From IMG/VR virus record IMGVR_UViG_2654587726_000023: 11,878 nucleotides of DNA; one strand, given 5' to 3'. The DNA comes from a virus. Lineage: Duplodnaviria > Heunggongvirae > Uroviricota > Caudoviricetes. Numbering within the stretch: the stretch's first letter is position 1; each line of letters starts with the position of its first letter. Made by a program: the position numbers and the translations under genes. Positions 1,596-10,247 of this stretch are shown here, one piece after another. The notes under the pieces were generated by a model. That model was not told the DNA's origin. It saw nothing but the letters and a program-made list of their open reading frames with translations, and did no database searches.

Positions 1596-1611
1596 AGGTT
1601 TTGTAAATTAT

Positions 1612-1761
1612 TTGTTCGTGGTTGTTCCAGGTTGTTCGGTGATTCTGGTTGATGTTTACATACTGATTTTTATGTATATGTTGGCGTGTGGCACTCAGAC
1701 GTGAGCCGCCACAATGCCGCCTGACCCCCTGCGCGATGCCGGGTTGATCTGCGAGATGCCG
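1612..1761 (+). promoter_or_regulatory. Putative regulatory region upstream of the capsid gene: TTGTTC x3 at 10-bp phasing (1612, 1622, 1632), interrupted palindrome TGTGGC-N15-GCCACA (1687-1713), ATGCCG x3 at ~21-bp spacing (1714, 1736, 1756)
   Basis: Direct reading; helically phased short repeats in the 235 bp intergenic region before the morphogenesis genes. Confidence 0.4.
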
Positions 1762-1832
1762 AGAGTGTCGGGCGGCGCTCCCCCCCGTGTTGGTTTCACG
1801 TCCTGAATCTTAACCAATGCGAGAAAACCTTC

Positions 1833-2978
1833 ATGAAGAAATTAATCGAACTCCGCCAGCAAAAAACCGCCCTGAAAAACCAGATGCGATCCCTGCTGGA
1901 AAAAGCCGACAGTGAAAACCGCAGTCTAACCGATGACGAAGGCAAACAGTTTGATGAACTGCGTGCAAAAGCCGATTCCCTCGACACAGAAATTTCCCGC
2001 CTCGAGTCTGTGGCTGATGAAGAACGTAACCAGCCTGGTGTTCCCGTCGAAGATAAAATCACCAAAAATGAGCTACGCTCTTACATTCTGACCGGGGAAA
2101 CCCGCAACCTGTCCGGCAGTGTTCCGGCTGATGGTGGTTATACGGTTATCCCGGAACTGAACAGAGAAATTATGCGTCAGCTTTCTGATGAGTCGGTGAT
2201 GCGTAAAATCTGTACTGTTAAAACCATTCACAGTAATGAATTTAAGCAACTGGTTTCTGCCGGGGGTGCGGTCGTGGGACACGGCGAAGAAGGTGCGGCA
2301 CGTAACCAGACGGCAACCCCAAAACTGAATGAAGTCAGTATCCGCCTGTATCCGATCTACGCTTACCCGAAAACCACTCAGGAAATTATCGATTTTTCCG
2401 AAGTCGATATTATGGGCTGGTTATCTTCTGAAATTGGCGACACTTTCGTTGATACCGAAGAAACGGATCTGGTTTCCGGTGATGGCGAGAAAAAAGCCAA
2501 AGGTTTCCTGACTTTCCCGCGCGCTACGGATAATGACAAAACCCGTCCTTTCGGTACGCTCCAGACGAAAAAAGTGACTGGCAGTCTCAGCGCCGATATG
2601 CTGATTGACCTGAAATTTACGCTGCGCAATAAGTACCGCAAAAAAGCTGTATGGGTGATGAACTCAAATACAGCCGCCTCCGCACAAAAACTGAAAAATG
2701 CCACTGGTGATTACATCTGGCGCGATCGTTTACAGGCTGGTGATCCTGATTCTCTGCTGGGGCTTCCGGTTGAATATCTGGAATTTATGCCAGACGGTGT
2801 GATTGCAGTCGGTGACTTTAAGCGCGGTTATTTCATCGTTGACCATAAAACCGGTACGCGTACCCGTCCGGATTTCAGCGAGCCTGGATTCATTAACATC
2901 TATACCCAGAAATATCTGGGCGGTGGTGTGGTGGATTCGAACGCCATCAAGATTCTGGAAATTCAGGCTGGCAAGTAA
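1833..2978 (+). CDS. Major capsid protein, HK97 family (with N-terminal coiled-coil delta/scaffold-like domain)
   Basis: 381 aa; N-terminal ~100 aa coiled-coil region followed by capsid fold motifs (…LVSGDGEKKAKGFL…, …NKYRKKAVWVMNSNTA…, …SLLGLPVEYLEFMPDG…VGDFKRGYFIVDH…) typical of HK97-type capsid proteins. Confidence 0.85.
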   Translation: MKKLIELRQQKTALKNQMRSLLEKADSENRSLTDDEGKQFDELRAKADSLDTEISRLESVADEERNQPGVPVEDKITKNELRSYILTGETRNLSGSVPADGGYTVIPELNREIMRQLSDESVMRKICTVKTIHSNEFKQLVSAGGAVVGHGEEGAARNQTATPKLNEVSIRLYPIYAYPKTTQEIIDFSEVDIMGWLSSEIGDTFVDTEETDLVSGDGEKKAKGFLTFPRATDNDKTRPFGTLQTKKVTGSLSADMLIDLKFTLRNKYRKKAVWVMNSNTAASAQKLKNATGDYIWRDRLQAGDPDSLLGLPVEYLEFMPDGVIAVGDFKRGYFIVDHKTGTRTRPDFSEPGFINIYTQKYLGGGVVDSNAIKILEIQAGK

Positions 2979-2984
2979 TGAGCA

Positions 2985-3008
2985 AAGGGGGCTTCGGCCT
3001 CCTTTTTC
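2985..3008 (+). terminator. Intrinsic terminator immediately after capsid gene
   Basis: Hairpin GGGGGC-ttcg-GCCTCC (7 bp stem with one G-U pair, UUCG tetraloop) followed by TTTTT. Confidence 0.65.
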
Positions 3009-3027
3009 AGCTTTATGGAGTACACCG

Positions 3028-3588
3028 ATGAAAAACACCGATTTTGAAATCCGTACATCTGAACTGACCGCCAGCGATAAAAAACTGGTGGGTTATGCCG
3101 TTCGCTGGAACAGCCTTTCAGAAATTATCTGGGACGAGTTTCGCGAACAGTTCACGCCGGGGGCTTTTGCTGACTATCTGGCGGCAGGTAATGATGTGCG
3201 CTGTCTGTATGAGCATGACTATACCCAACTGCTGGGGCGTACCAAATCCGGCTCACTGGTACTGACTGAGGATAACACCGGGCTACGTTTTGAACTGACA
3301 CCGCCAAATACCCAGCTTGGAAAAGATGTGCTTACGCTGGTGGAACGTGGCGATATTACAGGAATGAGCTTTGGCTTTCGCGCATTATGCGAGGAGTGGA
3401 ATATCGCGCAAAAACCGTATCTGCGTACTGTAACCGCAGCAGAACTCCGTGAAATCACGATAACATCGATGCCTGCTTATCCCGAATCCGGCGTGGAGAT
3501 TGCCCACCGTTCGTTGTTTGCACAGTACCCTGAATTACGCCCGGCAGGAAATAATCGTCATCGCTGGGCTGAACTGGCGGGGTTGTGA
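3028..3588 (+). CDS. Prohead maturation protease, HK97 family (S78/U35)
   Basis: 186 aa from ATG 3028 with GGAG RBS at 3017-3020; motifs …GYAVRWN…, …GAFADYL…, …LYEHD…LLGRTKSG…, …GDITGMSFGF… typical of HK97 prohead protease; ORF-track start at 2803 lies inside capsid gene and is rejected. Confidence 0.8.
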   Translation: MKNTDFEIRTSELTASDKKLVGYAVRWNSLSEIIWDEFREQFTPGAFADYLAAGNDVRCLYEHDYTQLLGRTKSGSLVLTEDNTGLRFELTPPNTQLGKDVLTLVERGDITGMSFGFRALCEEWNIAQKPYLRTVTAAELREITITSMPAYPESGVEIAHRSLFAQYPELRPAGNNRHRWAELAGL

Positions 3589-3589
3589 T

Positions 3590-4804
3590 ATGTGGTGGCC
3601 TTTTAGTCGTAAAAAAAGCGATCTGCGTAACCTGTCCATTGATGATTTTCTGGCGTTGTCTGGTGTACCAAATACCGGATCCGGAGAATATGTTTCTGCC
3701 GGGACGGCTGAATCATTGCCTGCTGTGATGAACGCGGTTTCTGTCATCGCTGAGGCGGTGGCCACGATGCCGTGTTACCTGTATCTGGTACGCAATGATA
3801 AGGGCAGAGAGGCGCGGGAATGGCTGGACAGTCACCCGGTAGATATTCTGCTGAATGAGCAGCCTAATTCGTGCCTGACACCTTACCAGTTTAAACGCAC
3901 AATGATGCGTCACTGCCTGCTGAACGGTAACGCCTATGCGGTTATTGAGTGGGGGCGGGACGGGCAGCCAAAATCACTTCATCCTTATGCGCCGGGGTGT
4001 GTTGTACCGGAACGCACAGGCACACACAAATACCGCTATACCATCACCGAACCCTGTACAGGAACGGTGCGCACGTATTTACAGGAAGAAGTTCTGCATC
4101 TCCGCTATGCCTCGGATGATGGCTTTCTGGGGCGTTCCCCCGTCACGATTTGCCGTGAGGCGCTGGGGCTTGGCCTTGCTCAACAGCGTCACGGAGCCAG
4201 CATTATGAAAGATGGCATGATGGCGGCAGGGATTATCACGTCAGGTGAATGGCTGGACGGCGTGAAAGGTAAACAGGCATTAGACGCACTGGAACGCTAC
4301 AAGGGGGCGAAAAATGCCGGAAAAACGCCAATCCTTGAAGGGGGCATGGATTACAGGCAGCTGGGGATGAGTAACCAGGATGCGGAATGGCTGGCCTCCC
4401 GTCGCTTCTCCATTGAAGACATCGCCAGGATGTTCAACGTGTCGCCGATTTTTCTTCAGGAATACAGCAACAGCACCTACAGCAATTTCAGTGAGGCGAG
4501 CCGCGCATTTCTGACCATGACAATGCGCCCGTGGCTGGCGAACTTCGAACAGCAAATCAAGGCCGCTTTGCTGGTGACTTCTCCCGTACCTGGTACCCGT
4601 TATCTGGTTGAGTTTGATTCAGCCGATTTACTGCGCGCCACACCCACCGAACGTTATGCCACGTATGAGAAAGGGATTAAGAGCGGGATCATGAATCCGA
4701 ACGAAGCTCGCGAACGCGAGGGTATGCCGCCGCGTGAAGGTGGTGATGAGTTCAGCCAGGCATGGAAACAGACTGTGGAAATTAAAGGGAGAAAAGATGA
4801 GTGA
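3590..4804 (+). CDS. Portal protein, HK97 family
   Basis: ~404 aa from ATG 3590 (2 nt after protease stop); portal motifs …LLNGNAYAVIEW…, …HLRY…GRSPV…, …LEGGMDY…, …SRRFSIEDIARMFNVSPIFL…. Confidence 0.85.
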   Translation: MWWPFSRKKSDLRNLSIDDFLALSGVPNTGSGEYVSAGTAESLPAVMNAVSVIAEAVATMPCYLYLVRNDKGREAREWLDSHPVDILLNEQPNSCLTPYQFKRTMMRHCLLNGNAYAVIEWGRDGQPKSLHPYAPGCVVPERTGTHKYRYTITEPCTGTVRTYLQEEVLHLRYASDDGFLGRSPVTICREALGLGLAQQRHGASIMKDGMMAAGIITSGEWLDGVKGKQALDALERYKGAKNAGKTPILEGGMDYRQLGMSNQDAEWLASRRFSIEDIARMFNVSPIFLQEYSNSTYSNFSEASRAFLTMTMRPWLANFEQQIKAALLVTSPVPGTRYLVEFDSADLLRATPTERYATYEKGIKSGIMNPNEAREREGMPPREGGDEFSQAWKQTVEIKGRKDE

Positions 4805-5099
4805 AGCCAGAATTACACCTGATGAAGTCAGGGCACATCTTCGACTTGATGATGATTTATCCGGTGAAGGCGAACTTCTGAAAATGTATACCGATGCGGC
4901 GCTGGAAGCCTGCCAGAAGCATATCGGGAAACGTTTTGAAGACGGGCTGGAATTTACCCCGGCAATGCGTGTTGGTTGCCTGATGTACATCGCTTTCCTG
5001 TACGAGAACAGGGAAGCAGTTTCACCAGTGGAGCAGTCTGAACTGCCTATGGCTATTTCTGCGCTCTGGTCGGTTTATCGTGATGTGGGGGTGTACTGA
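4797..5099 (+). CDS. Head-tail connector / DNA-packaging protein (phage gp6-like)
   Basis: 100 aa from ATG 4797 (overlaps portal stop in ATGAGTGA), RBS GGGAGA; N-terminus MSEARITPDEVRAHLRLDDD…LLKMYTDAALEA resembles gp6-like head-tail connector family. Confidence 0.55.
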   Translation: MSEARITPDEVRAHLRLDDDLSGEGELLKMYTDAALEACQKHIGKRFEDGLEFTPAMRVGCLMYIAFLYENREAVSPVEQSELPMAISALWSVYRDVGVY

Positions 5100-5539
5100 T
5101 GCCGTGGCAACCATTAAGGCGATGCACTGAGCCGGGCTGTAATAAGCGCGTGAAGTCCGGCAAGTGTGAAGAGCACAGACGGGCTGTATGGCGTGCAGAG
5201 GATGCCAGACGGGGACACCGCCGCGCGCGCGGGTATTCCCGACAGTGGGACAAATACCGCGCCCTGTACCTGAGCAAAAACCCGTTATGCGTGCGTTGTC
5301 TGGCTAAGGGGATTTATACGCCAGCTCTTGTGGTGGATCACATCATCCCCATCAATGGCGGCGGTGATGTTCTCTTCTGGCCTGAGTGGAACCACCAGGC
5401 ATTGTGCCAGACGTGCCACAACCGTAAGACGACACGGGAAGATCCAGCCACGAAAGCGAACCGTAAGGCGGGCATGTATCGCGAGCAGGAAGAACGGGCA
5501 GCACACCGTAACGACTGGATGTATGGCGATGATGACTGA
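5099..5539 (+). CDS. HNH endonuclease (packaging-associated)
   Basis: 146 aa; start ATG overlaps connector stop (TGATG); Cys-rich zinc region and HNH core …VVDHIIPINGGGDV…WNHQALCQTCHNRKT…; positioned just upstream of terS as in HNH-dependent cos packaging systems. Confidence 0.8.
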   Translation: MPWQPLRRCTEPGCNKRVKSGKCEEHRRAVWRAEDARRGHRRARGYSRQWDKYRALYLSKNPLCVRCLAKGIYTPALVVDHIIPINGGGDVLFWPEWNHQALCQTCHNRKTTREDPATKANRKAGMYREQEERAAHRNDWMYGDDD

Positions 5540-5708
5540 ACAGGAGCAAACCAGGCTGATACGTGGACTGATAAGGCAGCGTGACTTATGGAAGACACAG
5601 GAGACAGGGCACAAAGCCAACAGGACAGGGCGCACAGAACGCACCACAGCGAAGCAATTAACCGACCGTGACCGCGAGGTCATGGAATGTTTTCGCAATC
5701 GCTGGTGA
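5529..5708 (+). CDS. Hypothetical small basic protein (59 aa)
   Basis: ATG 5529 overlapping end of HNH gene in another frame; Arg-rich MMTEQEQTRLIRGLIRQRDLWKTQETGHK…; no clear RBS; could be non-coding. Confidence 0.3.
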   Translation: MMTEQEQTRLIRGLIRQRDLWKTQETGHKANRTGRTERTTAKQLTDRDREVMECFRNRW

Positions 5709-5827
5709 GGCCGTCAGAGGGGGTGGGGGTGGTTTTCAGGACGAAACCGTCCCTGCCGGACACCGACCGCCTCCTCAAATTTTTGTGCACGGGAATTTTT
5801 TTGAAAATAATTGGGCGAAAAAAGAAC

Positions 5828-6184
5828 ATGGCAAGACCACCAAAAGCCCCCGCTTACCTGGATGAAATCGCGGTCAGGCAGTGGAAGGAAAAATCGCGCC
5901 AGCTTTCCGGACGGGAAGACCTTACCCCCGCCGACTGGAGCAATCTGGAGCTGTATTGCGTTAACTACTCCATATACCGCAAAGCCGTCGAAGACCTTGC
6001 CACGCGCGGGTTCAGCATTGTTAACAGTCAGGGCAGCGAGAGCAGAAACCCTGCCCTGAGCGCAAAGGCTGACGCTGAAAGAATAATGATCAAAATGGCT
6101 TCTTTGCTGGGTTTTGACCCGGTAAGTCGCCGCAGAAATCCACCGGAAACAGAGGAAGAGGACGAGCTTGACCGCCTGGCATGA
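5828..6184 (+). CDS. Terminase small subunit (P27-like)
   Basis: 118 aa from ATG 5828; …PADWSNLELYCVNYSIYRKAVEDLATRGFSIVNSQGSESRNPALSAKADAERIMIKMASLLGFDP… resembles P27-family small terminase; directly precedes and overlaps terL. Confidence 0.65.
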   Translation: MARPPKAPAYLDEIAVRQWKEKSRQLSGREDLTPADWSNLELYCVNYSIYRKAVEDLATRGFSIVNSQGSESRNPALSAKADAERIMIKMASLLGFDPVSRRRNPPETEEEDELDRLA

Positions 6185-7829
6185 GTACGCAGAAGGCGTA
6201 AAAAACGGCAAAATTACGGCCTGTAAACGACTGAAACAGGCCGTTAAACGGTATTTTTCTGACCTTGAAAACCCCCTTTACACGTTCGATCCGGAGGTCG
6301 TGGAGCGGTTTATTGCCTTTTCCAGGGTGTGTCCGCACGTAAAAGGCGCAATGCGCGGTAGCCCCATTGAGCTGGAGCCGTGGCAGCAGTTCGCCTTTGC
6401 GTGCATCCTGGGCTTTAAGGTTAAGGCCACCGGACGGCGCAAATACACCAGCGCATTCATTGAAGTGCCGCGAAAAAATGCCAAATCCACGGTCGCCGCT
6501 ATCCTGGCTAACTGGTTTCTGGTTATGGAAAACGGGCAGCAGGATATTTACACCGCCGCCGTGAGTCGTGATCAGGCGCGGATCGTGTTTGATGATGCGC
6601 GTCAGATGTGCCTTTTATCCCGACCGTTACGAAAGCGGGTAAATATTCAGGCACACAAGGTGATACACCCGAAAACCAACAGCCTGTTAAAGCCACTGGC
6701 AGCAAAAGCGGCAACCATTGAAGGTACAAACCCGAGTCTTGCCATTGTGGATGAATATCACCTGCACCCTGACAACGGGGTTTATTCCGCGCTTGAACTG
6801 GGAATGGGGGCGCGTCCGGAGGGGCTGTTATTTGCCATCACCACATCGGGGAGCAACGTTGTTTCAGCCTGTAAACAACACTATGACTATTGCTGCCAGA
6901 TACTGGATGGTGAAGAGGTGAACGAATCCATGTTCGTGCTGATTTACGAGCTGGATGATGAAAGCGAGGTTGACGATCCGGCGATGTGGATAAAGGCGAA
7001 TCCCAATATCGATGTTTCCGTCGATCGTGAAAAACTGGCCTCAACCATCCAGAAAGCGCGGGGTATTCCGTCGCAGTGGGTGGAAATGCTCACCAAGCGA
7101 TTCAATATCTGGTGTCAGGGGGCTACACCGTGGATGGGTAGCGGTGCATGGGCGGAGTGCGCCGGAACGTTCGCGGAGGCGGATTTATACGGTCAGGAGT
7201 GCTACGCGGGGCTGGACTTATCATCAACCAGCGATATTTCCAGCGTGTGCTATGCCTTTCCGGTCGGTAAAAAGATTATGCTGGTTTCCCGTCACTATCT
7301 GCCGGAATTTCAGCTACAGAACCCCGCCAATAAAAACCGCGCCATCTATCGCCAGTGGGTAAAGGCGGGCTGGATACGCACAACACCGGGTGACTGCATT
7401 GATTATGACCGTATCCGTGATGACATCATGGCGGATGCAGAGAATTTCAATATCAGGCTGGTGGGCTTCGATACATGGAACGCCACGCACCTGAGGACGC
7501 AGCTACAGGGGGCAGGATTTGAGGTGGAGCCGTTCCCGCAAACATACCTTCGTTTCAGTCCGGCGGCGAAATCGTTCGAAGTTTTTGTTAACCGGAAGGT
7601 GATTGTGCATCGTGGCGATCCGGTGCTGGCCTGGTCAATGAGTAATGTTGTGATGCAGAGTGACGCAAACGCCAATATCAAGCCGAACAAGAAAAAATCA
7701 TCCAACAAGATAGACCCGAGCGTTGCGGCTCTGATGGCGTTTGGCACATTCCAGGCAGAACATGAGGAATTTGCATTTGATATAAGCGACAGCCACAAAG
7801 AGCGGCTTGCGGCGTTTGATGGGGTATGA
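6168..7829 (+). CDS. Terminase large subunit
   Basis: 553 aa; apparent TTG start at 6168 with GAGGA RBS, overlapping terS end; motifs …LEPWQQFAFACILGF…, ATPase region …EVPRKNAKSTVAAIL…, …AIVDEYH…, nuclease-domain region …GLDLSSTSD…. Confidence 0.9.
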   Translation: MTAWHEYAEGVKNGKITACKRLKQAVKRYFSDLENPLYTFDPEVVERFIAFSRVCPHVKGAMRGSPIELEPWQQFAFACILGFKVKATGRRKYTSAFIEVPRKNAKSTVAAILANWFLVMENGQQDIYTAAVSRDQARIVFDDARQMCLLSRPLRKRVNIQAHKVIHPKTNSLLKPLAAKAATIEGTNPSLAIVDEYHLHPDNGVYSALELGMGARPEGLLFAITTSGSNVVSACKQHYDYCCQILDGEEVNESMFVLIYELDDESEVDDPAMWIKANPNIDVSVDREKLASTIQKARGIPSQWVEMLTKRFNIWCQGATPWMGSGAWAECAGTFAEADLYGQECYAGLDLSSTSDISSVCYAFPVGKKIMLVSRHYLPEFQLQNPANKNRAIYRQWVKAGWIRTTPGDCIDYDRIRDDIMADAENFNIRLVGFDTWNATHLRTQLQGAGFEVEPFPQTYLRFSPAAKSFEVFVNRKVIVHRGDPVLAWSMSNVVMQSDANANIKPNKKKSSNKIDPSVAALMAFGTFQAEHEEFAFDISDSHKERLAAFDGV

Positions 7830-8879: not shown

Positions 8880-10247
8880 TTGATTATAAATAGCGGATAT
8901 GAATATCCGGCGAAAAAAATCACCATCAACCTTGCTCCAGCCGATCTGCCAAAAGAAGGGGGACGATATGATTTGCCTATCGCTATTGCGTTACTGGCGG
9001 CCTCAGAACAGCTTACAGCCAATAAGTTAGATGAATATGAATTAGTCGGAGAACTGGCGCTTACAGGCGCTCTGCGTGGCGTTCCCGGCGCAATCTCCAG
9101 TGCAACTGAAGCTATTAAGTCGGGCAGAAAAATTATCGTCGCGAAAGATAACGAAGATGAAGTGGGGCTAATTAACGGTGAAGGATGCCTGATAGCCGAT
9201 CATCTGCAGGCTGTCTGCGCGTTTCTGGAAGGTAAGCACGCTCTCGAACACCCGAAACCAACTAATGCAGTATCCCGGGCGCTACAACATGATCTCAGTG
9301 ATGTTGTCGGTCAGGAGCAAGGAAAGCGAGGACTGGAAATTACCGCCGCTGGCGGGCACAACCTTTTACTGATTGGACCGCCGGGAACAGGTAAAACAAT
9401 GCTCGCCAGCCGTATTAATGGCCTTTTGCCAGATTTAAGCAATGAAGAGGCACTGGAGAGCGCTGCGATATTAAGTCTGGTAAATGCTGAATCAGTACAA
9501 AAACAATGGCGGCAGCGCCCGTTCCGCTCACCTCATCACAGTGCGTCGTTAACTGCGATGGTGGGCGGTGGTGCAATTCCAGGGCCAGGTGAAATTTCGC
9601 TGGCGCATAACGGCGTGCTTTTTCTTGATGAGCTACCTGAATTTGAACGGCGTACACTGGATGCCTTGCGAGAGCCGATTGAATCCGGGCAGATCCATCT
9701 TTCACGCACACGAGCAAAAATAACCTATCCAGCCCGTTTCCAGCTTGTCGCGGCAATGAATCCCAGCCCTACCGGACATTATCAGGGAAACCATAACCGC
9801 TGCACACCAGAACAGACATTACGTTATCTCAACCGGCTCTCGGGGCCCTTTCTCGACCGCTTCGATCTCTCACTGGAGATCCCATTACCGCCCCCCGGCA
9901 TTTTGAGTAAAACGGTAGTGCCGGGAGAAAACAGCACCACCGTTAAACAACGTGTAATGGCCGCCAGAGAGCGCCAATTTAAGCGGCAGAATAAACTGAA
10001 CGCCTGGCTGGATAATCCGGAAATACGCCAATTCTGCAAGCTTGAAAGCGAAGATGCGCAGTGGCTGGAAGAAACGCTGATCCATCTGGGGTTATCGATT
10101 CGTGCCTGGCAGCGGTTATTGAAAGTTGCACGAACCATTGCTGATATTGATCAGTCTGACATTATCACACGTCAGCATTTGCAGGAGGCAGTTAGCTATC
10201 GTGCGATTGACCGTTTGCTCATCCATCTGCAAAAACTACTGACATAA
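8880..10247 (+). CDS. comM: ComM (YifB) Mg-chelatase-like AAA+ competence protein, 5-prime truncated by island insertion
   Basis: 455 aa frame beginning IINSGYEYPAKKITINLAPADLPKEGGRYDLPIAIALL…, Walker A GPPGTGKT; corresponds to E. coli YifB from about residue 51 onward as I recall it; upstream in-frame sequence diverges and hits a stop at 8838-8840; only a TTG at 8880 with no RBS. Confidence 0.85.
   Translation: MIINSGYEYPAKKITINLAPADLPKEGGRYDLPIAIALLAASEQLTANKLDEYELVGELALTGALRGVPGAISSATEAIKSGRKIIVAKDNEDEVGLINGEGCLIADHLQAVCAFLEGKHALEHPKPTNAVSRALQHDLSDVVGQEQGKRGLEITAAGGHNLLLIGPPGTGKTMLASRINGLLPDLSNEEALESAAILSLVNAESVQKQWRQRPFRSPHHSASLTAMVGGGAIPGPGEISLAHNGVLFLDELPEFERRTLDALREPIESGQIHLSRTRAKITYPARFQLVAAMNPSPTGHYQGNHNRCTPEQTLRYLNRLSGPFLDRFDLSLEIPLPPPGILSKTVVPGENSTTVKQRVMAARERQFKRQNKLNAWLDNPEIRQFCKLESEDAQWLEETLIHLGLSIRAWQRLLKVARTIADIDQSDIITRQHLQEAVSYRAIDRLLIHLQKLLT

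Follow-up and report, generated by a model that had tools for sequence, protein, structure and literature searches.

How is the capsid gene controlled in a satellite that builds its own capsid? The question is raised by an 11,878-nt stretch of viral DNA (hereafter, the window) that, as judged from its gene content, includes the right-hand portion of a capsid-forming phage-inducible chromosomal island (cf-PICI). In this island, a gap of 274 bp between an 82-aa ORF (orf82) and the capsid gene holds the control region. cf-PICIs are recently recognised and widespread satellites, and their cross-species spread depends on their own capsids. The cf-PICI literature examined mentions no promoter or transcript for the capsid operon and contains no text linking cf-PICIs to leaders or attenuators. 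A preliminary description of this DNA had proposed a repeat-rich control region at 1597-1832, in front of the capsid gene. A conserved promoter and a leader were indeed found there, and the computed conservation, base-pair covariation and alternative complementarity make it likely that the region is the late-operon control region of the cf-PICI, consisting of a promoter and a two-state cis-regulatory leader RNA.

Island context of the capsid gene

The island is of the ~10-15 kb class and carries int, alpA, pri/rep and its own genes for capsid, protease, portal, connector, HNH, TerS, and TerL, as identified by Pfam matches and from an annotated relative; the definition of cf-PICIs used here also requires the absence of tail and lysis genes. 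The relative, an island of E. coli ATCC 43886 (L001), is 99.8% identical and is annotated with genes for an integrase, an AlpA-type regulator, a primase, SSB, a ProQ/FinO protein, and the proteins from capsid to TerL. The AlpA of the island is a small CP4-57/Vis-type protein (PF05930). The prototype EcCIEDL933 shows the same gene organisation as the present island (bioRxiv 10.1101/2022.09.08.507074). The features that frame the control region are as follows.

327-752: SSB gene
789-1319: gene for a ProQ/FinO-domain protein (PF04352, E 6e-24)
1310-1558: orf82 (phrog_1957, a family in which function is not assigned)
1565-1597, + strand: intrinsic terminator-like hairpin with a T-run; inverted repeat with arms AAAGGCCCGGA and TCCGGGTCTTT, -18.1 kcal/mol
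1833-2978, + strand: HK97-type major capsid gene (PF05065, E 7e-61; RefSeq annotation of the 99.8% identical island)
After the capsid gene: prohead protease gene (annotated in the ATCC 43886 island)
3500-4804: portal gene
5099-5539: HNH gene
5687-6184: TerS gene
6168-7829: TerL gene

The capsid gene heads the controlled operon, which continues with the protease, portal, connector, HNH, TerS, and TerL genes. The hairpin at 1565-1597 is a credible intrinsic terminator that would close the upstream replication/accessory operon (SSB, ProQ/FinO, and orf82). The terminator of the preliminary description thus held up, though a simple terminator scan missed the hairpin; weak Rfam leader matches align it as a terminator stem.

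Two of the upstream genes deserve mention. The ProQ/FinO-domain RNA-binding protein is encoded two genes 5' of the structured leader described below, and an RNA chaperone is unusual in a satellite; EDL933-type islands carry a gene for a PerC-family regulator in its place. Because a ProQ/FinO gene was found near the leader in only ~22 loci, it is no universal partner of the leader. The product of orf82 is 40% identical to that of the ORF in the same position of EcCIEDL933-type islands, and a homologue is also present in Pantoea. It was rejected as a partner regulator, being adjacent to the leader in ~78 of ~190 leader loci (about 40%) and absent from about half of the islands; its AF2 single-sequence model (pLDDT 54) was unusable.

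A host comM-like gene, a LysR regulator gene, and two tRNA genes lie 3' of the island genes. The comM-like (Mg-chelatase) ORF (8880-10247) begins at profile position 33 of the N-terminal domain, with TTG as its sole start, so that the 5' end of comM/yifB appears to be the insertion site of the island. The nearly identical island of ATCC 43886 is located between gcd and hpt.

Promoter and upstream element

Two DNA elements were identified between the terminator and the predicted start of the leader.

1600-1637, + strand: module A, a putative upstream promoter element; TTTGTAAATT box (TGTAAAT at 1602-1608) followed by TTGTTC at 1612, 1622, and 1632
1655-1682, + strand: predicted sigma-70-type promoter; -35 TTTACA (1655-1660), 16-bp spacer, -10 TATGTT (1677-1682)

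In an alignment of 73 non-redundant upstream regions anchored on HP1, the first hairpin of the leader (1687-1713; see the next section), no conservation was seen 5' of about -95. Its onset was abrupt, at about -89, and four conserved blocks followed.

About -89 to -81 relative to HP1: block 1, TTTGTAAAT
Block 2: T/G-rich repeats every 10-11 bp; TTGTTC in three copies here and in EDL933-type islands, TGTAC/GTTTAC/GATTAC or TGTTC/TGTTTTC/TGTTTG elsewhere
Block 3, after a constant 17 bp: -35 element TTTAC[A/T]
Block 4, after 16 bp: -10 region cATGTATATcTT (here TATGTT), ending 6-7 nt before HP1

Both promoter hexamers lie at a fixed distance from HP1 across the islands. Module A, present in one copy per island, is also found in EDL933-type islands, and the 17-bp distance from its end to the -35 element is likewise constant. 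A promoter scan recovered the site at 1655-1682, but its eight matches in 8.9 kb are at chance level, so that the match is not significant alone; the promoter was called from its positional conservation and from the gene arrangement of L003-type islands, in which the upstream genes are divergent and a promoter must fall within the region. The making of cf-PICI capsids without an inducing phage (bioRxiv 10.1101/2025.02.11.637232) is consistent with such an autonomous promoter. Judging from the position of the -10 element, transcription would start at ~1688-1690, and the mRNA would thus begin directly with HP1.

The three TTGTTC copies with 10-bp phasing reported in the preliminary description are exact (1612-1617, 1622-1627, and 1632-1637), and their 26-nt pattern has a single occurrence in the window, where 0.01 would be expected. 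The accompanying suggestion, that phased arrays in the region are activator sites, stands in part. It suits the TTGTTC array, which, together with the TGTAAAT box, is fixed in position before the -35 element across diverged islands, as would fit a DNA-binding factor; it does not suit the palindrome and the ATGCCG repeats, which are treated below. The module A repeats probably bind a factor or bend the DNA, and we infer that the bound protein would be an activator. A helper-phage late activator finds no support: among 50,697 phage records, none holds a relative of the promoter region, and, as already stated in the preliminary description, there is no clean P2 Ogr-type site (TGT-N12-ACA); in 1597-1660, the TGT at 1602 has CGT at +15. 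A helper-phage origin of the promoter or the leader was also rejected, all matches being due either to chance or to cf-PICIs deposited as phages. The record LR881103.1 (L396), a 16.5-kb cf-PICI, is deposited as 'Escherichia phage vB_KppS-Ant'. Directly after TerL, it contains a 2.3-kb gene (2036-4333) annotated as a tail tape measure protein, which is unexpected in a satellite of a kind described as lacking tail genes and may be a misannotated accessory gene.

Two explanations of module A from within the island itself were considered: AlpA as its binder, which was left unsupported, and Rep iterons, which were rejected. One and the same module A is found alongside 3-4 AlpA types, and the alpA promoter regions have no motif in common with it beyond the level of shuffled sequences; the divergence of module A nonetheless tracks that of AlpA (Mantel r 0.43) more than that of the capsid (r 0.14). 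As for Rep iterons, the iteron type changes freely across 71 islands while module A is constant. The origin of the ATCC 43886 island (L001, 10410-10635), which separates the primase gene from the ORF that follows, contains ~10 iterons ACTGTTCACC in both orientations, which share a TGTTC core with the module A repeats; the last copy corresponds to ~23-34 of the window. The iterons vary widely among islands (GGTGAACA, GCGGGTTA, TGAACCAA, and others), and this diversity among related islands points to modular exchange of the replication module.

In many islands that are not of the E. coli type (e.g. L114, L156, and L137), a GC-rich hairpin with a T-run, CCCCTGTCTCTGATGGGGGTTTTCTTTAT, lies over the place of the -35 element, about -52 to -25 from HP1. 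This arrangement resembles a fusion of an insulating terminator with a weak -35 element (TTTTCT).

Leader RNA and its alternative pairing

Downstream of the promoter, the following RNA elements were predicted up to the capsid start codon.

1682-1835, + strand: match to the leader RNA family (covariance model R1, 89.5 bits, E 2.5e-24; sole match in the window)
1687-1713, + strand: HP1, predicted 5'-terminal hairpin; lower stem UGUGGC/GCCACA, internal loop A/CC, upper stem CUCA/UGAG, loop GACG
1716-1776, + strand: SL2, long stem-loop; basal stem GCCGCCUGAC / GUCGGGCGGC (inverted repeat 1716-1730/1762-1776), apical part with two CUGCGnGAUGCCG repeats
1777-1788, + strand: C-rich/pyrimidine single-stranded linker GCUCCCCCCCGU, unpaired in the fold and C/U-rich in nearly all family members
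1789-1832, + strand: HP3 and ribosome-binding region; conserved UGGUUUCACGU paired with ...GAGAAAACC (1821-1829) in the covariance model alignment
1796-1806, + strand: element b, UCACGUCCUGA, complementary to element a, the apex of HP1 (UCAGACGUGA, 1695-1704)

Along the RNA, the fold shows HP1, SL2 two nt later (1-5 nt across the family), the C-rich linker, and, beside the start codon, a third helix. Two of the repeats named in the preliminary description fall within these helices. The nested palindrome (TGTGGC-a-CTCA-gacg-TGAG-cc-GCCACA) folds as the hairpin HP1. The three ATGCCG copies are present at 1714, 1736, and 1756 (spacings of 22 and 20), two of them within a 13-nt direct repeat CTGCGnGATGCCG at 1729 and 1749; across the window, the hexamer itself shows no enrichment (12 copies, with 9.2 expected). 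Four features go beyond that description: the inverted repeat 1716-1730/1762-1776 around the ATGCCG repeats, the promoter-like site at 1655-1682, the TGTAAAT box at 1602-1608, and the complementarity of 1695-1704 to 1796-1806.

Matches to the region were found in 523 of 5,426 complete E. coli genomes (~10%). These matches are modular, with some sharing only 1581-1637 and others only 1688-1840. Further loci were collected as IMG/VR capsid relatives, as contigs with the exact HP1 21-mer (at least 120), and as variants retrieved with degenerate patterns of HP1 or of the downstream element, and islands of Pantoea rodasii and Shigella were added. The non-redundant sample comprised 105 unique leaders, of which 40 remained at a cut-off of less than 93% identity, and the 73 upstream regions used above. 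Because a profile search of genome contigs with the capsid alignment gave only two loci, the taxonomic breadth of the set rests on IMG/VR contigs. Model R1 gave exactly one match per island in 99 of 99 islands (1.13 Mb, both strands). At the gathering threshold, Rfam 15 yielded no family other than two tRNAs across the window; the best scores in 1500-1900 were 12-20 bits against thresholds of 41-233 and were located on the upstream terminator. The covarying RNA is best read as a cis-regulatory leader, and one previously uncatalogued in Rfam. It is a candidate family for Rfam-like catalogues and a one-per-island marker of cf-PICIs.

The leader alone is not significantly more stable than shuffled sequences (z -1.8), and a distant AT-rich variant (L080) has no significant fold. 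The helices were supported by comparison. RNAalifold, applied to a MAFFT alignment of 37 non-redundant leaders, independently predicted HP1 and the base of SL2, and pairing was scored in two alignments.

Alignment A2, 37 leaders: 94.2% of cells paired, versus 38-47% when slid; 11 pairs changed on both sides; 0 of 500 shuffles reached the covariation
Alignment A3, 85 distinct leaders, model-based and fitted to the model, which biases the pair counts: 97.5% of cells paired, versus 36-48% when slid; 12 pairs changed on both sides; 0 of 500 shuffles reached the covariation

Compensatory changes were found in eight of ten basal pairs of SL2 in A2 and in nine of nine in A3. On the + strand, G.U pairs outnumber A.C pairs by 48 to 16, an excess that the fitting of A3 to the model favours and that points to a + strand RNA. 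In HP1, three pairs show compensatory changes and 99.7% of cells are paired (A3), a covariation for which, as for that of the a:b helix described below, there are few independent lineages (in essence two classes and the EDL933 type). The sequence of HP1, including its unpaired bases, is almost invariant, and its 21-mer core is found exactly in >120 viral contigs, at least, among the matches listed. The interior of SL2, by contrast with its paired base, is unrelated between subgroups and forms a three-way junction with GNRA-like loops in many islands; given this variability, the ATGCCG repeats are a local feature, confined to the E. coli subgroup. Both these repeats and the palindrome had been taken for protein-binding arrays and are better read as RNA: they lie 3' of the predicted transcription start and within helices in which compensatory changes occur and G.U pairs are more numerous than A.C pairs. 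A 30-codon ATG ORF (1714-1806, MPPDPLRDAG...) was considered as a leader peptide and rejected. It lacks a Shine-Dalgarno sequence and spans SL2 up to an end within element b; because SL2 varies, other leaders do not conserve it, and it is probably fortuitous.

The third helix bears on translation. In the family, HP3 (UGGUUUC(A)CGU / ACGGAAACCA, 3-5 nt before AUG) is 95.9% paired and carries a weak Shine-Dalgarno-like GGA/GAG; in the present leader, the GAGAAAACC arm carries the GAG ~9 nt before the ATG at 1833. In the subgroup of the present leader, HP3 takes a slightly different register, and the minimum-energy fold of the present sequence pairs 1786-1794 with 1813-1821. Variation in HP3 is limited to U-A/U.G wobble, with no double compensatory change.

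HP1 has a second potential partner, reached by a long-range or pseudoknot helix. Its loop and 3' arm (AGACGUGA in the family) are complementary to UCACGUCU on the 5' side of HP3, and in the present leader, a and b can form 10 bp interrupted by a single bulge. Across the family, pairing in the a:b helix reaches 97-98%, with U-A replaced by G-C in 11 distinct sequences and with two G.U pairs. Among 114 distinct leaders, A..U in HP1 always occurs with CACGUC in b (103 leaders) and C..G always with CCCGUC (11 leaders), without exception; the latter class was retrieved independently from either side of the pairing with degenerate patterns. Variants with A replaced by G in the HP1 loop form G.U with b. 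The upper stem of HP1 and the competing a:b helix are thus both maintained by covariation, suggesting that both folds are used, which is the signature of a two-state leader. No second copy of a or b that could serve as a trans-acting RNA was found elsewhere in the island.

EDL933-type leaders are too divergent for model R1, yet have the same architecture. Their HP1 is GUGGugCCAG-GACG-CUGGggCCAC, and CCAGGACGC:GCGUCCUGG gives a 9-bp a:b complementarity in a different sequence. In these leaders, GCGUCCUGG is also the 5' arm of an intrinsic terminator hairpin (GUCCUGGAGUU...AACCCCAGGAC-U7/8, -14.1 kcal/mol), which has an AGGA Shine-Dalgarno sequence in its 3' arm and whose U7-8 directly abuts the capsid ATG. 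The simple scan did not call this terminator because of an internal mismatch. The full leader folds as HP1, SL2, and the terminator (-65.5 kcal/mol, z -5.3), and the minimum-energy fold of the prefix without the terminator 3' arm is the a:b antiterminator CCAGGACGC:GCGUCCUGG. An alternative helix competing with the 5' arm of a terminator is therefore present in EDL933-type leaders, and the homologous a:b pairing covaries in the present family. At 6205-6271 of L002, the minimum-energy fold joins the U-run to an A-tract, AUGAAAAA, that precedes the terminator hairpin, extending the EDL933-type terminator as in A-tract/U-tract bidirectional terminators. In the present leader, no U-run follows HP3, and any control would be translational only.

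These elements suggest the following scheme. The terminator at 1565-1597 would end the upstream operon, and the sigma-70 promoter of the region itself would drive the capsid/packaging operon. The nascent leader would form HP1 and SL2 first, and the choice between two folds would fall when b emerges. In one fold, HP1 and HP3 would both be formed and the weak ribosome-binding site of the capsid gene occluded, giving an OFF or low state; in the other, b would invade the HP1 apex through the GACG loop and free the 3' arm of HP3 that bears the ribosome-binding site, giving an ON state. The direction of the switch, with a:b pairing as ON, is a presumed one, and the leader probably switches shape to set the amount of capsid. 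In EDL933-type leaders, the same logic would act on the intrinsic terminator, with transcriptional and translational control at once. A doubtful extension is that the nearly invariant HP1, together with SL2, acts as the receptor for a trans-acting partner (RNA polymerase in the manner of put RNAs, a host RNA-binding protein, or a helper or island factor) that chooses between the HP1 and a:b folds. If true, the element would belong to a new class of satellite riboregulators, setting the timing or dose of capsid production without recourse to classical AlpA induction, and the making of cf-PICI capsids without inducing phage would be accounted for. The promoter, the upstream element, and the predicted two-fold leader are now defined to precise nucleotides.

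Other readings and known systems

Several other readings of the region can be set against the two-state leader. The leader may be a constitutive 5' UTR that stabilises the mRNA and tunes translation without any switch, the a:b complementarity simply building one compact fold. 5'-terminal hairpins are established stabilisers of E. coli mRNAs against 5'-end-dependent decay; HP1 begins ~0-2 nt from the predicted 5' end, and capsids are made without induction. This reading is unlikely, since covariation keeps both the upper stem of HP1 and the a:b pairing that competes with it, since EDL933-type leaders place a terminator and a Shine-Dalgarno sequence under that very competition, and since a stabiliser would not need nearly invariant loop and bulge sequences. 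That invariance, extending to the unpaired bases, would rather suggest recognition by a conserved partner, and HP1 and SL2 may then act like the put RNAs of phage HK022, binding the transcribing polymerase and making it resistant to pausing and termination over the ~6.5-kb operon from capsid to TerL. Like putL just downstream of PL (PMC9378689), they are two adjacent stem-loops, 1-5 nt apart, and the first of them starts where transcription is predicted to start; in EDL933-type leaders, moreover, there is a terminator for the polymerase to pass. We regard a put-like function as quite improbable, however: putL and putR show no sequence similarity and model R1 finds nothing in HK022, the sequence of SL2 is free to vary whereas stem II of put makes specific contacts, the present operon has no convincing internal terminators, and the a:b complementarity and its covariation would be left unexplained.

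The remaining readings place the function in the DNA. An activator or repressor could bind all three repeat sets as DNA, with the palindrome serving as an operator that covers +1 and the TTGTTC and ATGCCG arrays as further sites. The conserved position of the TTGTTC array and TGTAAAT box would agree with this, as would a palindrome at the start site and the closer correlation of module A with AlpA than with the capsid. The sequence of SL2, including the ATGCCG repeats, nevertheless varies while its pairing is kept, with an excess of G.U; the arms of the palindrome are asymmetric (A vs CC), and a third site, at a distance of 100 nt, covaries with them; and the co-occurrence of one module A with 3-4 AlpA types, along with the lack of a motif shared with the alpA promoters, speaks against AlpA. 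DNA sites throughout the region are thus very improbable, and the preferred reading retains a DNA-level role for module A. A cos or packaging site in the GC-rich palindrome is hardly credible. In HK97-type HNH-cos systems, cos lies between HNH and terS. High conservation of a 21-mer that stands in front of the morphogenesis genes would be in keeping with a packaging site, but the packaged cf-PICI genome LR881103 starts 22 nt before terS and ends after HNH, which leaves the capsid leader internal at ~12.1-12.3 kb, and RNA-type covariation would find no explanation.

Among known systems, the upstream element resembles phased direct-repeat activator sites, such as the P2 Cox boxes at P4 PLL, OmpR/PhoB-type boxes, and the Fis sites at rrnB P1, in having 3-4 direct repeats with 10-11 bp phasing, centred about -55 to -85 and on one helix face. 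Module A differs from these in that its binder is putative, and it is neither the P2 Ogr dyad (TGT-N12-ACA, near -55) nor the Rep iterons of the island; its GTAAAT-N5-RTNC loosely fits the degenerate Fis core. The arrangement of a promoter heading late or lysis-morphogenesis genes, followed by a short leader, recalls the lambda PR'-qut-6S RNA-tR' region and P. aeruginosa PalpB-tB with AlpA, and EDL933-type islands share with these an intrinsic terminator before the first late gene. The present leader differs from lambda PR' in lacking a conserved -10-like pause element (NANNNT-type) in HP1 and the initial transcribed region, where such an element falls within the first ~25 bases, CACAAT at 1710-1715 being confined to the subgroup of the present island, and the upstream genes (SSB, ProQ/FinO, and orf82) include no Q gene. 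The AlpA of P. aeruginosa is a larger Q-like protein (PMC9371919), unlike the small CP4-57/Vis-type AlpA of the island.

HK022 putL and putR are likewise cis-acting RNAs of two stem-loops just downstream of a promoter in an enterobacterial mobile element, although the start position here is placed from the -10 element only. The stem-loops of put RNA are separated by about one unpaired base, and the RNA binds the zinc-binding domain of the RNA polymerase beta' subunit and suppresses termination. The present leader shows no similarity to the HK022 loci (L004 and L005) by sequence or by model R1; its second stem varies freely, and its first hairpin has an alternative partner beside the ribosome-binding site. 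The closest parallel in logic is with attenuators and riboregulators that sequester the ribosome-binding site. A leader peptide, a T-box, a protein-binding motif, or the pocket of a known ligand could not be recognised here, which sets the present leader apart from the described members of these classes, as does the absence of an Rfam match. The principle appears to be shared, in that mutually exclusive helices would decide whether a terminator hairpin or a helix occluding the Shine-Dalgarno sequence is formed, and the EDL933-type relatives hold the full set of attenuator elements: HP1 as the anti-antiterminator, the a:b helix as the antiterminator, and the terminator.
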